From assembly GCA_918797485.1 (NCBI GenBank), contig CAKKNE010000005.1:2480001-2544000 (forward strand): a stretch of 64,000 nt of DNA. The letters are read 5' to 3'. The first letter of the stretch is position 1; the number at the start of each line of letters is the position of its first letter. The notes below the pieces were generated by a model that searched no databases, was not told where the DNA came from, and saw only the letters and a list, made by a program, of their open reading frames with translations. Positions 3,001 to 59,283 of this stretch are shown here, one piece after another. Made by a program: the position numbers and the translations under genes. Source of the DNA: Pelagomonas calceolata (taxonomy: Eukaryota).

Positions 3001-6000
3001 CCACCAAGGCGCGCGGCGCCACTGCCGTAACTAACGAATCGCCGTTGGCTAAGCAAAGCGCGAGCAAGGGAGCAACTACTGTAGTCTTGCCGGCGCCCAT
3101 TACCATTTGGTGCACGAGGCCGCTCTTGTCGGTGAGGGCCTGTCGGAACGTCCGCACGAGCTCTAATTGTTGGTCGCGCAGCACGACCGACGCCGTAAGC
3201 TCGAAGACCAAGTAGCGCGGGTCGACTGAAACCGCGGATGGCGACCGCTCTAGAGTCACGCGCTTAGATACGAGCGCTGCGACACAGGCCTCGGCCGCGA
3301 GCGCGATCTCCGACGGCGGCGCGCCGCGCTCGACGGCCTTGGCCAGCGCCGAGGCCTTGGCGGCTGCAAAGCGTCTCGCGACGAGCCGTCCAAAGAGTAC
3401 GGCGCAGCTCGCTGTGGCGTCGAGCACCGCCGGCGAGTCGCACGAGGCATTAAATGAGGACAGGTCCGCCTCGCCGCTCGTCGATAGCAACGCCCGCGCG
3501 CAGCGAGCGAAGTCGATGGACGGCGCCGTTCGCGCCAGCGACCGCCGCACGGCATCGCGCCGCTCGCCGGCATTGGCGAGCGCCTCGACGCTTTGAATCG
3601 CCGTCGTGACCTCCTTGACATCGGCCGCGGCCGCCGCGGACAGGTCGTTGACGAGCTGCCGCGTGGACGCGGCGTCGAGCGACGGCAGCGTCGGCTTCGT
3701 CTTCGTCGCGGCTCGTTCGTCGGCCGCGTACTTGATGTCTCGCGCGAGGCGCTCAAGCGTCTTGCGCGCGGTGAGCTTCGAGGTCAAGTCGGGCCGCGCC
3801 AGGTCGAAGGGCGCCGGCTTGGCGACGTAGGTCGGCGCCTTGACGTCGGCGACGTGCGAGTCCTTGAGGGCCTGACCGACGGCGACCTCGTTGAGCACGT
3901 CCGCGAAGCCGTCGCCGAAGGCGAACTTTTGCCGGTCGGCCGACGTCGCCGCCGCGGGCGCCGCCCGGGCGGTGATAGTCGTCGGCGCGCGGAACGGCGC
4001 AGCCGTGTCGGCCGCGCGCGGCGGCAGCGGAGGCGGAGCCGTCACATTGGCTTTGAGGAAGTCGTGGACTCGTTGTAGCACTAGAGCGTTCGCCGCGGCG
4101 ACGACATCGGGGGCGTCTCTTTTGGACTGTTTCGTCCCTTCAGCGACGGCCTGGCCCTGCTTCATAGCCGTACGTGCGGCACCCGATAATTTTCCGAAGA
4201 AGCCCTTGCCCTGTTCCCGCGTCGCCACGGCCTCCTGGAGCGCCATCTCGTAGGTGGGTAGCGTCTTCCCGAGGGCCGCTGCTTTTTCAGGGTTTCGTGC
4301 CAACAGCTGGAGGATCGACAACAGACCCTTATCGGTTGGGATGAGATAGTCCGAGTTGGCCAGTAAAAGTAGCGCCAGATGACGCGGCTCGCAGCCATCA
4401 GCGCCTCGGTGGCCGATTAATAACTCGAGTAGGAGTATGAAGTCGCCCTTGATCTTCACGCACGGAGCCTTCGCCGCGAAGCGTTTCAGCACGAACGCGA
4501 TGGACACCGGCGCGTTACCGGCGCCTGGTACTGATGGGCCTAAGTCCGCGAGCCAGTGGTGGCCGTCGGCGACGCCTAGAGCTTCCGTTGACCAGTCTCT
4601 GATGACCGTCGGCTTGTCCTTCGGGCCGCGTGGCTGCGACAGAGCGGTCACGTCGAGCGGGAAATCGTAGAACGTGTCCACGGTCGCCGGCGACGCCTTC
4701 AGGGGCCAGAGATCTAAGCGCCACGACGAGACGGCCGTGCCCAACGCGGCGGCGTTTGCTAAGGCCGCACGATTTACGAGAACAGCATCCGTGACAACGT
4801 CACAAAACGCTGCAACGGACGCCTCTTCGCCAGGCGACAATACGAGTCTCGCGTCCGCGGCGGAGGTCCGCAGCGCGTACGAGCGCCAGGCGCGCGTCAG
4901 CGACGCGTTAGCGCGGCGCGTCGGCGTGAACGACAGGGCAGCGGCGTCAGAGTGCGAAGCCCTCGTGGCGAGGGCTACTCTTAATCTCAGTACATCCGCG
5001 TCGACCGTGCGGTCGTCGGCCAAAACGTCCTCGAGCGCGCCAATCCACTGGGCCTCGTCGGGCAGGAGCGCGGCGTCGGACGCCATCGCTGGACAGGCCT
5101 CGCAGGCGCCGGCTAACGAGTCGAGGCCCCGCGCGGCGCGCCAGCCGACCAGAGCTAACGTGGCCGCGAGCGAGGGCGACGTGACCCATGACTGCGATAG
5201 GTGTACCGGGTACGCGTGGACTTTTCCACCCGCGACTCGTGAGAGCCACTTCGCATCGTTCCTTTCGGCGACGAGGCGCCCGCCGTTGAGACCTGGTTTC
5301 GCGAGCGCCGACGACACAATGACGAACTCGGACCGCTCGAACGCCGACTCGGCCGCGAGCGCCACGCCAGGCAGGGGCGCCGCGAGCTTCGCGACTTGCG
5401 TCGGAGTGGCGTCGAGTGTCAGATCGTAGCCGTGGAAGTCGCTGCTTGCCCAGCGCTGCGGCCCGCTCGCGTCGAAGGACAGCTCCAGTCGAGGCAGCTC
5501 GATGCGCGTGATAGTACCGGAGCCGTCGGCCCAGGCGAGCACGTGCGCGAGGGAGTCGAGCTTTATCAGCCGGCAGGCGAGCGCGGCCGTCGGCGAGCCT
5601 GGTTTGCCCGCGCGCAAATCAACGAGCCGCAGATCGCCTCGTTTGACGGTCGCCGCGCCGTTGGCATCGATGCTTACAGTAATCGATGGACCATTCTGGC
5701 GCGCCGCGCCCTCGAGGACCACACTTTCGGCAGCTCCCGTCTTCGCGCGGTACCAGAAGCGGTGCGATGCTAACAGCGCCGCGGGCAACAGACCGCGTAG
5801 CGCATAGGACGGCGCCAGCCGCTCGACGCCCTCAGGAGTCGACCGCGTGACAACGAGAGACGGCCCAGTCAAGCCAGCAAAGCCCGAGCGCCGGTCGAGC
5901 TCACCAGCCTCGGCGACAACTGGCGGAGCGGAAGGGTCCTCGTCTTCCTCGTCGTCGTCACCATCGACGTCGTCCGAGATGGGAAGACCGTCATCTAATG

Positions 6001-9000
6001 ACACCTCGGCGTCGCTCGCGAAGACCGACGTCCAGCCCTCTCTACGACCGTGAACGCATCGAGCAAAGACTTGCACCGACAAAGGCTCCCTCAGTACTAG
6101 ACCGCGGCACTCCCGACTATCAATGCGCCCAGACACGACGGCGGTGCCCGCGTCTTCTTGCAACACGCGTCCCCAGGACGCGCCCGAGCCGTCGCGTTTG
6201 AGCGCGGCGGACACCCACGACGAACTAAGTAATCCGGCGGCGCCCGACGTCGACGCCATGAGTGAGGCGCGCTCGGACTTGGAGATCGGCGGCGGCGCGG
6301 CCCACAGCGCGACGTCACATCTCAAGCCCACGCACCGACGGAGTTTCCGCATTTCCGAGGTTTGAATTTCGGCGCACTGGACCTCGCGCGACGCCTCGGC
6401 GCCAAAGCACTCGGCGAAGTCGGACCGCGCCGTGAAGTCGTCCTCGAGGATCTTCAGCTTCCTCGAGCGCACCACGAACTCACAAGTCATGAGGTTGATC
6501 TCGACGTCGCTCGCGGCCGCCAGGCCATCAATGCACCCGGCGAGCCATGCCGCGTAGCTGAGCTTGGCGTCGTCGGCCTTGGCCTCGCTCGGCGGCGGGA
6601 GCTTGGGCGTGAACCGGCCGGCGCACCGCTTCGTTGTGGCCCAGCCCTTGTGCGCACCTTCGAGCTCGACCCACTTTCGGGCCTCGGCGGGCGGCTTCAC
6701 ATTAGTCAACGCCGCGACGGCGTCCTCGAAGCAGGCGTCGGCCTTGCCGTCGCGCGCGAGCGCGAGGACAAAGGGCCGGAGCGTCGCGAAGCAGCCGAAG
6801 AGCTCGCTGTGCGTCGTCCCTAGTGAAGCCCGCTCCTTCACGACCGTCTTCTTCTTCGGGTTTTTGGACGGCGGCGCAAAATTCCAATTTTGAGAGAGGA
6901 ACAATTGCGCGCCGACAACGGAGGCGCATCGCGCATCGTCCTCGAGGCACGGCGGCCGCGCGATGCAGGCCAAGACCGCGCGCACGGCGCAGGACTCGGC
7001 TAATGAGTCCCGAGACTCCGCGGCCGAACGCCGGAGCCACCTATCTAACATGGGCGGCGCGTCGTCGCGCAGGATCCCACCTAGCACGCCGCGGAGCTCG
7101 GCCACGCCGGCGGCGCTCACCTCAGGTACGCGCGAGCCGCGGACGCGCGTTTCCTTGTCCTGTACGAGGGCAGCGTAGCCGTCCAGGCGGCTCAGTAAAC
7201 GCAGCGCGTAGAGAATGGCCGCCGCGTGGCCGCCCTCGGCGACGCCTCGAGACGTCCCCGGGTCGAGCTCGCTAATTCGCGTCCGGAAGCCCTTTGCAGC
7301 GGCAACCAACATGTCCGGCGACCGGTGGAGCTCGTTCACGAGGAGACCGAGCGTCGTCGATAGCTTCTCCTTGGGCGCCGGCGCCGTCGACGGGGCGTTG
7401 TGGCGCTTCTCCGGTGCCGGCGCGAACCAGGCGTCGGCGGGGTCAGGCGACGCGTAGGCGCCCGGCTCGAATAACGCCGCATCTAAAACTCTTTGCATCT
7501 CGATGCACCCTAGTGCCGCGAAGCGCGCCGGCGCCGAGAAGAACTGCAGGAGCAGAGGAATTCGTAGATACGGCGCCGTCAAGTAACTACAGACGAGCTC
7601 CGCGTCCGCGGCGCCCAGCGAGCCGTCGAACGTCGGCATCTTTTGCACGTAGAGCACGTCCGTCTCCGTCTCGATTTGCTCCCCACATAGTACGGACGGA
7701 TTGGCCGCGGACGGCGGCGCCTCGAGCTCCGAGGGCTTCCTGCGGAACATGTTGGCCGCCGAACCGAAGAAGCCCGCCGACGGCGACAGGTGCGCGGGAT
7801 CGACGTCCTGGCCGTTTCTCAGCTTCACCGAGAGCGCACCCTGTGTGGAAATCAAATAATTTCAGGCGCCACACGCCATCGAAGCGACACATCGTCCCAA
7901 AAAATTAATGAGCCATTGGTTGGTTTTCTACACAGGCCCTATACCTTCTTCGCAGTCCAAACTTGGCCGAGCTGCGCCGGCCGCCACAGTTTCTTCTTCG
8001 ACGGGGGCTTGACGGCGTCGCCCAGGTGCGGCGCAAGCATCAGTCTCCACGCCAGGTGGGCGTCGCGGAATGCCTCCAGCGCCGGCGCCGCGTCGACGAT
8101 TTCCGTCTCCGTGCCCGCGAGGTACGCGGCCAATACTTCGTCGTCCGCGGCGAAGCCTAGTTCATGCGCCACCTCTCCGACGAGAAGCTTATCAGTCGCG
8201 CCGAGGGCCGAGAGCGGCTCGGCCTCGCTCCAGGCGAAGATCTGCGGCTTGGCCTTGAGCGACCTCAGGTAGTCTAACGATGCCGCTCGCGCCGCGCAGG
8301 CCGCCGGGTCCAATAGCAGAGACGTCGCCGTGATCGCCTCGAGGACGCCGCCCGCGCTTGCGGCCCCCGCGGCGTAGCCCGCCGAAGGCCGATCCGCCTT
8401 GCCAGCATACCGTCGGCAGAACGCGTCGTCCTGCCCACTGCCGCTTTCGATTGTAGACATCCGTGCTGCGGCGTCGATGAGGCACAACATAGCACCAGCG
8501 CAGCACACTCTATTCGCGTCACCTTCTCTCGTCGGCGCCGCCCGGGGAGAGAGGCACGCCGAGGCGTACTGCCGCGCCACGAGGCCCGCCAGGCGCAAAA
8601 CCTCCACCCTATCAGCGTCTGTGGCGTCGCCGCTCGCCCACGCGCAGGCCTCGTGCGGCACGTCGACGGGAGCTGGGGCGGGCAGGCACCGGAACGCCGC
8701 GTGCTCGACGAGACTGATTCGCAGCCAGCGGCCCTTCTCGTCGTTGCGGTCGTTGGCTAATAAAGTGCCGGCATCGACCACGGCTCGCAAGCACGTCAAG
8801 ACTTCGCGCACGGTCTTGGCGGGCGATGGTGCGCCTAAATCCGCCGGCCGCACAATGGACACGGCCGCGGCACCGCCGGCGAGCGCGTCCTCGTCCACGA
8901 TTTCGTTGAATTTGTCGAAGAGCGGGAAGGCCGTGGGCACGGGCGCGTCTCCGGTAACAGCGGCTAGCGCTGGTGGTGGGTCGGCCGCGTCCCTCAACGC

Positions 9001-28676: not shown

Positions 28677-28750
28677 AGTATGCAAGACCGCCGCCGCCGG
28701 CCGCTCCGTGCGGCCGGCGGCGGCGCCAAGACCCGGTCGGCGTTGAGGAC

Positions 28751-28918
28751 GCCGGCGTGGTGGATTAAAGAGCCCGGCGCGGCGGTGCCGCCGGGAGACG
28801 CCCAAGACCCTTGCCCGTCGACGTTCTCGACGAGGCAACCACGCCGTCGGCGGTCGCTTCGCGCGGCCGCCGGCGTGGTGGATTAAGAGCCCGGCGCGGC
28901 GGTGCCGCCGGGAGACGC
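28751..28918. repeat. ~50-bp intergenic direct repeat, 2 copies
   Basis: GCCGGCGTGGTGGATTAA(A)GAGCCCGGCGCGGCGGTGCCGCCGGGAGACGC at 28751 and 28869. Confidence 0.85.
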
Positions 28919-29059
28919 TGACCACGGTCCCGTCCGGAAGGGCGCGCGAACCGTCACCGCGCTTGCCGTGGTGCTACATATCCCTTTGTCATCCCGCGGC
29001 GTCCGGGCGAGTCGCTCCCCCCTGACTGTAAAAAAAAAAATAATAATAATCGTCCACCA

Positions 29060-30386
29060 TTAGCTCCTCGGCGGCCACTCGTCCACCAGCACGCACCCCC
29101 GCTGGACGACGACGCCGCGGCGCCGGCACGCCGCGAGCACGGCCTCCCCGTCCGCGCCCGGCTGCGCGAAGATGAAGCGGACGCCCCGGTCGGCCAGCAC
29201 GTCCACCTCGCGCGCCCCGATGCGGGGCGACACGCACAGGTCGACGGCGTCGAGGGCGCCGCGCACGTCGGCGACCGTCGTGAGGCCGTCCTTGACGTAC
29301 GGCGAAACGCCCGCGCAGGACGCCGCCTCAGCCGAGACCCTCGCGAGGACGCGACTCGCGGGCTTGGCGGCGTTGAAGACGTCGCCGACGACGGCCCACC
29401 TACCGCGCGCCACGGCCGGCCGCCCCAGCACGGGCCCGAGTCGGGGGTAGACCAGCGGATAGCGTTCAGCAAACGCGCGCCGCGCCTCGACGACGTCGCG
29501 CAGCTGCGCCGCCAGCGTCGTCGTCGAAAGCCCCATGATGCTGTCGACGCCGCCCTCCACGCCGCGCACCTGTGTGGAAATCAAATTTCGGGCGCCCCAC
29601 GCCATCGACGCGACTTTGTCCTTGTGACTGCATCTGCTCAATGGTGTGGAGATTCTACGCCATTGACGCGTCCCCGTGAGTGCGTCTGCTCAATGGTGTG
29701 GAGATTTGAACCTAACTCACTGGTTCGGTTTCCACGCAGCCGCGCACGTGGGGCTGCAGGAGCGGGTGCTCGACCATGAGCCCGCCGGCGCACTGCAACA
29801 CCACGGGACCGTCGTCCGACGCCAGGATGTCGTCGACGAGCGTCGGGGGGAACTCGCCGAAGGCCACCGTCGCCTCGTGCACGTCGACGCGGCGCGTGCC
29901 GTGGAGGATGTCGTGCGTGATGACGCACCCCACGGTGCTGCAGCTACTACCTGAATAGCTCCGGGCGAAGCGCCGCGCCTCATCCAAATCCGCCGGCTTC
30001 TCGCGCACCCGCCCCTCGAACGTCACGACCTGGTCGCCGCAGACGAGCACGGCGTCGTCGTCGCCCTCGGTCGCGAAGTGCCGCTCGAGCAGCGCGTCGC
30101 ACTTGGCTCCGGCGATCGCGCGCACGAGGGTCCCGGGGTCGCCGGCGCGGTCGCCGATCGCGTCCTCGTCGACGTCCGCGACGCGCGTCTCGAAGCCCGC
30201 GCCGCCCATGGCCTCGAGCAGCGCGCGGCGCGACGCGGACTTCGAGCCCACGATTATGCGCGGCGTGTCCGCTGGCATGGGTGCGGCGCATTTGCGCGCC
30301 GCGTCCAGCGTGATCTCCGGCGGCGGCGCGAGCGCGCCGGCGCTGCGCGTCGAGAGAGCAGCCATCAGTGCGAGGCGCCGGCGCAT
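29060..30386 (-). CDS. Maf-family nucleotide pyrophosphatase fused to a YccU-like CoA-binding domain
   Basis: Exons 30386-29748 and 29569-29060. Maf motifs IIVGSKSASRRALL, VDEDAI, CGDQVV, REKP, AGG, EGGVDSIMGL; then WAVVGDV..KPA..DAVDLCV..FAQPG..GCVLV. Confidence 0.85.
29562..29747 (-). mobile_element. Intact introner element: 170-bp TIR element with 8-bp TSD, forming a 178-nt GT-AG intron
   Basis: TSD CCGCGCAC at 29562-29569 and 29740-29747; TIRs CTGTGTGGAAA (29570) and TTTCCACGCAG (ends 29739). The GT comes from the TSD and the AG from the TIR. Internal duplicate TCTGCTCAATGGTGTGGAGATT. Confidence 0.93.
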
Positions 30387-58541: not shown

Positions 58542-59283
58542 AGCTAGGGCGCCTAGCCCCACCGAGCCGTCCGTGACGAGTCGCGTCGACGGCGCGGGGT
58601 CTGCCTCCATAGGGGGGGGGACGCCAGGTCCTGAGCGAGTCTTAATCGATCCAAAATTACGTGCTTTTTCGCATGGAGCCTCCGAGAGGGGTCGGTAGCC
58701 CCGCCCTAGGTCAGGGGTCTGCACGGAGGTCGATGACGATGAGAGGGAGAGCTCCAAAGTCGTCAAAAACCCGTTTAGTAGGTTTAGCGGCGTGCCGGCT
58801 GCAGCTGCATGCGTTCAGCGCGGCGGATACAACGGTCTTTTAGGGTGCTGCAGCAAAGGTGATGACTTAGTGGCGGCTCTGGACGCCGTTCGGGCCGATG
58901 AAGGCAGCTTAGGAGCGAGCCGAATCACATCGTGCGGGTATTTTTTGCAGTCATCGGTCTGCCAAAACGCCAAATCCCGACGACCCCATCCCAAACTTTG
59001 TTAGGGGACGGGAATCGACCTGGTTAACCTTCGTTTTAGAAAATCCGGCGCATAGGACTGCGTTTATATTCGCTATGGAGCAATCCTAGTCTGGTGTCCC
59101 CCCCCATGCCTCCATACACCGACGGCGGCGATTCCCACACACGTGGTTTTTCAATCCTCTCTAGAGAAATTATGAGGGCGTACTGTCACGCGTCCCGTGG
59201 CCCAGGCAGCTCTAAGCAAAGCATCGCTACAAGGTCGCGTCGTCGCCAGGCGAAATGCCACCTCTCAAGGACGGACCCAGTGT

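Follow-up and report, generated by a model that had tools for sequence, protein, structure and literature searches.

Introner elements of Aureococcus anophagefferens were reportedly described by Huff, Zilberman and Roy in 2016. The way in which introns are gained through a target-site duplication (TSD) and terminal inverted repeats (TIRs) is summarised in PMC10228655, PMC11282704 and PMC12130899. In Aureococcus sp., introners have a TSD of 8 bp (legend of Fig. 2F in 10.1101/2022.06.06.494994), and it is known, more generally, that in some introner families the element carries the 3' splice site while the TSD provides the 5' one, and that splicing of introners is generally more efficient than that of other introns (10.1101/2022.06.06.494994, PMC9860276). 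In Pelagomonas calceolata itself, 956 putative introner elements with GT or GC donors, an AG acceptor and conserved TIRs have been reported (10.1101/2021.10.25.465678, PMC9481584), and Table 6 of PMC9860276 lists four families from Pelagomonas MAGs, with both TSD and TIR scored '?'. The available text of the P. calceolata account does not give the length of the TSD and is silent on a bidirectional design, on retention and on polymorphism (10.1101/2021.10.25.465678, PMC9481584). The locus analysed here is an RNA-verified DNA-transposon introner in a pelagophyte, and since such elements have already been reported in this lineage, it is unsurprising on its own. What is added is the anatomy of the family (8-bp TSD, 15-bp TIR, both orientations), together with a possible natural experiment, namely several introns that are present or absent among wild alleles of one gene and whose retention can be measured.

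The locus lies in a 64,000-nucleotide stretch of P. calceolata DNA, referred to here as the window, in which the octamer CCGCGCAC occurs at both 29562-29569 and 29740-29747. These two copies form an 8-bp duplication flanking a 170-bp element (29570-29739), which is devoid of an ORF, whose ends are inverted repeats of each other with 10 of 11 positions alike (13 of the first 16), and whose GC content is 54% as compared with 72-76% in the exons on either side. On the minus strand, to which all features of the locus belong, the GT-AG intron defined by the sequence and by RNA joints is 178 nt long (29747..29570), begins with GT, finishes with CAG and lies in phase 0 between codons 213 and 214. The donor is the GT at 29747-29746 in the intronic copy of the TSD (29740..29747; RNA joint 'skips 178, CT..AC (cut +9)'), and the exonic copy (29562..29569) makes up the first 8 nt of exon 2. 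The acceptor-side TIR (29570..29584) is identical to the 15-bp family consensus and provides the CAG acceptor, and the donor-side TIR (29725..29739) departs from it at 3 positions per 15 bp. In other words, the donor lies within the duplicated target, the acceptor lies within the TIR and splicing is seamless: it removes one TSD copy together with the element, so that the mRNA equals the pre-insertion sequence. The interior holds two imperfect copies of a unit of about 52 bp (29604..29707). Further splice signals may be present as well. In particular, a TGAT in the acceptor-side TIR, 14 nt before the intron end, is a candidate branch point, and a subterminal motif, GTGAGTTAG (29712..29720), looks like a U1-type donor on the minus strand and contains a branch-point-like CTAAC on the other, its role as a splice signal being putative; in both cases we take the U1 and branch-point consensus as our guide. 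No joint that uses GTGAGTTAG as a working donor is present among those listed from the reads.

With the intron removed, the host gene, which is a housekeeping gene, has an ORF of 382 aa (30386..29062), and the unspliced ORF stops 11 codons into the intron. Exon 1 (29748..30386), whose start codon at 30386 is predicted from the gene calls of relatives, encodes a Maf domain (PF02545, E 2.2e-23), and exon 2 (29059..29569) encodes the end of that domain followed by a CoA_binding_2 domain (PF13380, E 2.1e-12), such that an intron-retaining transcript would terminate ahead of the CoA-binding domain. The Maf domain is preceded by a 36-aa N-terminal extension (30279-30386), which we take to resemble an organelle-targeting peptide. 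The nearest named homologues are those of pelagophytes, with Aureococcus at 57-69% identity, and the fusion of the two domains recurs in 15 of 19 longer homologues. The spliced protein is colinear with 16 aligned homologues, without indels at the junction, with two Aureococcus gene models diverging nearby. Two minor features accompany the gene. Over 29099-29265, a second sequence with 10 differences per 167 bp is present at single-copy depth in both DNA runs, and RNA reads of run X24 carry its letters; it is a transcribed paralogue of the 3' end of the host gene located elsewhere in the genome. Downstream of the gene, there is an intergenic direct repeat of about 50 bp (about 28750-28800 and 28869-28918).

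Splicing was followed in 8 of 24 sequencing runs, six of RNA (X24, X21, X22, X14, X9 and X15) and two of DNA (X7 and X4). The predicted 178-nt intron is spliced out in five of the six RNA runs and in neither of the DNA runs. Namely, the junction is crossed by raw reads in X24 (3 reads with 3 starts), X21 (9 with 7) and X22 (6 with 5), all three of which come from one sample, and by contigs from two further studies, X14 (depth 2.8, with a short side of 21 nt) and X9 (depth 124), while the joint is absent among those listed for the wild metatranscriptome X15. The first mates of the junction reads all map to the plus strand, which is what the usual stranded library yields for a minus-strand transcript. 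That said, splicing of this intron looks incomplete. The mid-intron depth, with all reads in sense orientation, is 4.7 as against 21.1 in the exon in X21 (22%) and 11.0 as against 21.0 in X22 (52%), which are upper bounds on retention, because about 3-5 similar copies exist. In X14, intron-containing pieces reach a depth of 5.5-8 as compared with 2.8 for the spliced form, X9 has the spliced contig only, and one transcriptome-derived gene call (P0216) runs into the intron. An in-frame alternative donor 27 nt inside the intron was considered and set aside, with no matching joint among those listed. Separately, hundreds of polyA reads from other loci bear the element end (29570-29613), some in one orientation and some in the other, perhaps a sign of intron retention across the family or of copies in UTRs.

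How does this locus compare with the systems described before? It is like the introners of A. anophagefferens (PMC10228655, PMC9860276, PMC11282704) in that a short TIR element with a TSD is found in both orientations, carries one splice site, co-opts the other and leaves the mRNA unchanged, the likeness being one of description. The Aureococcus sp. introner of Fig. 2F in 10.1101/2022.06.06.494994, in contrast, adds 12 nt to the mRNA, whereas the present one adds none. The introner elements of Micromonas are alike in being repeated introns that wild populations carry at some alleles and lack at others, but the published IE1 example is reversed, with a 3-bp TSD that gives the acceptor and an element that carries the donor (PMC4540971, PMC11282704). 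Finally, the intron lengths of P. calceolata peak near 210 bp (10.1101/2021.10.25.465678, PMC9481584), as compared with 203 + 8 = 211 for the full-length copies described below, and the present family is probably that of the published P. calceolata elements.

A search of metagenomes with a 26-nt end motif, which by its nature selects conserved copies, returned at least 120 loci; the matches listed comprise 109 distinct sites, at 103 of which a left end is paired at a distance of 61-214 bp. Full-length copies measure about 203 bp with a 15-bp TIR and differ from one another by 16% on average. The copy in the host gene is about 33 bp shorter, its best matches among them are 80-85% identical across about 140 bp, and its interior has only about 3-5 look-alikes. 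In both DNA runs, coverage of the acceptor end exceeds that of the flanks about 2,000-fold, a ratio that is not a copy number and is read only as a rough sign of a large family. The 8-bp rule is a property of the family as a whole. For the 102 paired copies listed, identity between the flanks is 0.74 at a length of 8 bp and 0.20-0.33 at every other length from 2 to 12, and perfect 8-bp duplications are found in 27 of the 102, as opposed to 0.06 by random pairing, while in 22 of the 102 the duplication is weak (at least 4 mismatches). What is more, among the 80 listed duplications in which no more than 3 positions disagree, one end is GT or GC in 78 (background 0.31; p 4e-37), the orientation being forward in 32, reverse in 27, either in 19 and neither in 2. 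Since the same CAG-ending 15-bp TIR stands at both ends, an acceptor is available in either orientation and the only demand on the target is a GT or GC at one of its ends; insertions lacking one would mostly have been purged or avoided, selection and target preference being inseparable here. The subterminal motif GTGAGT falls within the first 30 nt of 65 of the 103 listed copies. The TIR is not better conserved where it serves as the acceptor (20/360 versus 17/465 mismatches, p 0.24), and TSD mismatches, compared between third codon positions and the rest, amount to 10/44 as against 8/88 (p 0.057; 22 loci, with the frame inferred).

Empty sites with a single 8-mer were recovered for 2 of 100 queries, namely L049 for locus L012 and L108 for locus L037. 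A search with stricter end criteria found none, two gapped candidates for L089 were rejected, and no empty allele of the site in the host gene was seen as DNA. In locus L012, part of the gene appears to be doubled over 3027-5813 (positions 459-700 of L049 match 3231-3472, and 547-1237 match 5113-5813), with an extra copy of the element near 4632-4756. The window contains a second member of the family as well (7841..7944, minus strand), a 95-bp element (7841-7935) with a 9-nt GT-starting spacer and no recognisable TSD; removal of the predicted 104-nt intron 7944..7841 extends an ORF of 740 aa to 1686 aa. In sum, the intron in the host gene is spliced where predicted, and it is very likely a non-autonomous cut-and-paste DNA transposon, i.e. 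an introner, which duplicated 8 bp of exon on insertion. The staggered cut would have been the work of a transposase supplied in trans, and a stagger of 8 bp accounts for the 8-bp duplication by established transposon biology. The original prediction, made from the letters alone, thus fared well as regards structure and mechanism. Its TSD around a 170-bp element with near-perfect 11-bp TIRs is found as described, the junction 29748/29569 that it proposed to look for is seen in RNA reads, and its claim that splicing restores the pre-insertion sequence agrees with both the RNA junctions and the indel-free alignment. The Aureococcus-type mechanism that it put forward, with the donor from the TSD and the acceptor from the TIR, is supported by the same RNA junctions and protein alignment, by the 103 family copies and by the two empty sites.

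Is the insertion recent, as the original prediction also held? A wild assembly contains the orthologous site (L099) with the element at the same position, with one change in the exonic TSD copy and without 52 bp of the repeated internal unit; its flanks differ from ours with a pS of 0.26 (dS 0.32), the introns differ at 6 of 126 aligned positions, and the diagnostic left end is shared by 2 of 113 copies only, those of the window and L099. Among the matches listed, with at most 15 members for each cluster, there are 86 gene calls from close relatives (10 distant ones having been dropped), of which 34 read into the intron, 7 start inside it, 8 run across the site without interruption and 37 leave it uncovered. 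Four of the 8 uninterrupted calls begin inside another intron, and two (P0280 and P0242) lie on contigs of 4.4 and 3.9 kb, which suggests, as far as gene calls can tell, genomic empty alleles; the 8 could be spliced transcripts instead. In a sister lineage with 81-82% aa identity, the calls P0166 (82% identical to the host protein), P0167 and P0169 run through the site as single calls of 369-376 aa on contigs of up to 56.6 kb. Judged by these calls, the intron appears to be lacking there, which points to a gain and not to an ancestral intron. Taken together, L099, the tally of gene calls and the sister lineage imply that the insertion is not private to one strain, arose after the sister lineage had split off and is probably polymorphic. 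We therefore lean towards the view that it postdates that split and continues to segregate in the wild, in a population that is very diverse and recombines. On the scale of populations, then, the word 'recent' stands; it does not stand in a stricter sense, given that the insertion is shared with wild alleles at a pS of 0.26, and that the copy is a shortened derivative at most about 80-85% identical, over the aligned part, to the full-length form. The presence/absence comparison that the original prediction had proposed has, in the same way, a divided outcome: the wild allele L099 carries the insertion, and some wild alleles seem to be without it, the latter going by gene calls.

One could object that the intron is ordinary and old, or an artefact of assembly, and that the repeats around it arose by chance in GC-rich DNA. 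Indeed, GC-rich 8-mers repeat often, and CCGCGCAC itself is present 7 times in the window, both strands counted. However, a match of 8 letters at one given place has a chance probability of about 1.3e-4, and a scan of the whole window for an 8-bp direct repeat with an 11-bp TIR, at most 1 mismatch allowed, gives 2 sites as against a total of 7 over 30 shuffles, or 1 as against 0 when limited to elements that start with CTG. A general repeat finder reports only GC-rich low-complexity families in the window, the element and both of its flanks are covered by difference-free pieces in the DNA runs, the family is widespread and the sister lineage is without the intron, so that we attach next to no probability to this objection. 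Another alternative would have the family spread through RNA: whole introns would be reverse-spliced, a route proposed for fungal introner-like elements, and the TSDs and TIRs would be remnants or coincidences. What could be cited in its favour is a recurring donor octamer. Namely, GTCGAGAG precedes the left TIR at 7 of 91 unrelated listed loci, mostly without a matching copy downstream (the exact loci are L016, L037, L040, L052, L061, L077 and L120, those with one mismatch L026 and L055, and it is also found at L093 and, on the other strand, at L095). This 91-locus set leaves out 12 loci as duplicates, of which L104 and L020 proved to be non-orthologous. Yet, the empty site for L037 fits an ordinary target starting with GC, and the octamer differs between L044 and L093, which occupy one orthologous site, so that it seems to arise at existing sites. 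Locus-specific 8-bp duplications, the TIRs and, above all, insertion in both orientations largely refute spread through RNA, and we consider it very improbable.

The alternative that deserves the most weight accepts the same origin, but takes the insertion to be old and fixed, held by purifying selection for splicing or nucleosome positioning or by conversion between copies, with the uninterrupted gene calls being spliced transcripts or later precise losses of the intron. The low divergence of the element would fit such a history: L099 has changed at only those 6 of 126 intron positions in spite of the pS of its flanks, and across 8 orthologous pairs the elements differ at 24/595 positions (4.0%) as against 180/1770 (10.2%) in the flanks, in a tally that leaves out L034/L104 and L010/L020, for which no flank aligned. 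The 16% mean difference among full-length paralogues and the small number of look-alikes of the interior may be counted on the same side. That said, the search motif itself selected conserved copies, and with the two mis-paired pairs kept the difference shrinks to 53/690 (7.7%) versus 180/1770 (p 0.07). Moreover, orthologous copies tolerate large deletions (170 versus 118 bp, 72 versus 57 bp), and the sites of P0280 and P0242 are uninterrupted on contigs of several kilobases. If the insertion is fairly young and the population diverse and recombining, the smaller divergence of the intron between alleles, relative to the adjoining exons, would be accounted for without any special constraint. 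On balance, an old and fixed insertion appears to us unlikely, though far from negligible. Our search of the open-access literature, limited as it was, turned up nothing relevant on conversion or low divergence of introners.

Returning to a segregating introner as the preferred reading, we note that the intron is not alone in its gene. Wild alleles with 90-97% aa identity (P0196-P0291) appear to have three more interruptions where the window has none, at 30182, 30044 and about 29900 (minus strand), i.e. at codons of about 69, 115 and about 163, and three further introns thus seem to segregate in the host gene. At codon 115, the listed gene calls divide into 39 without and 31 with an interruption, and it would seem from them that all four combinations of presence and absence occur between this intron and the one studied here. 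A limited search of open-access literature found nothing related to intron diversity in Pelagomonas. Retention, the several segregating introns of one gene and the recurring donor octamer are, in our view, the side observations worth following. As regards the octamer, it is possible that donors are replaced by conversion among copies. One could go further and picture the family as a symmetric intron cassette in mid-invasion, in which each TIR would be a full 3' splice signal, the subterminal motif would act as a U1 site or a branch point depending on the strand, and any target ending in GT or GC would work. New copies would at first splice poorly, with a fifth to a half retained as here, and would then gain the shared, stronger donor octamer by conversion, and at least four such introns would be segregating and recombining in the host gene in the open ocean. 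We offer this picture tentatively and regard it, as a whole, as quite doubtful. If it were true, wild populations would allow a direct measurement of the selection that acts on newborn introns. The possible natural experiment in the host gene would, for its part, let the cost of new introns to fitness, and the way in which they mature, be tested with existing ocean sequencing data. As a separate observation, exon divergence between orthologues is patchy in L018/L107, L037/L090 and L002/L067, where stretches of 30-90 bp with hardly any difference are interspersed with strongly diverged ones, possibly as a result of recombination mosaics, chromatin-linked rate variation or assembly mosaics.

Finally, the superfamily deserves comment. 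Both ends of the element read 5'-CTG, and those of hAT elements read 5'-CAG/TAG. Buster elements, which are hAT-type, have an 8-bp TSD and a TIR of 14-16 bp (PMC12637253), so that the present family is like hAT-type MITEs in its 8-bp TSD and short TIR, but unlike them in its CTG ends and in having no link to a transposase. Merlin elements, with TSDs of 8-9 bp and TIRs that start with 5'-GG (PMC8101967), fit in TSD length and differ at the ends. The hint of hAT in the original prediction, which was drawn from TSD length by itself, a trait found in Merlin too, is therefore not upheld. The autonomous element or transposase with these termini that it proposed to look for was found neither in the window, nor in 229 kb of loci, nor in viral contigs searched with two patterns, nor among prokaryote genomes, and the 229 kb hold no TIR pairs longer than 300 bp. 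Three loci without a left TIR within 1.6-3 kb were considered as long elements and rejected, since they hold truncated or decayed copies. Elsewhere in the window, at 58603-59115, there is another, intergenic MITE-like element of 497 bp (58611-59107), which is flanked by an 8-bp duplication, GCCTCCAT, and has G-run TIRs that match at 15 of 17 positions.
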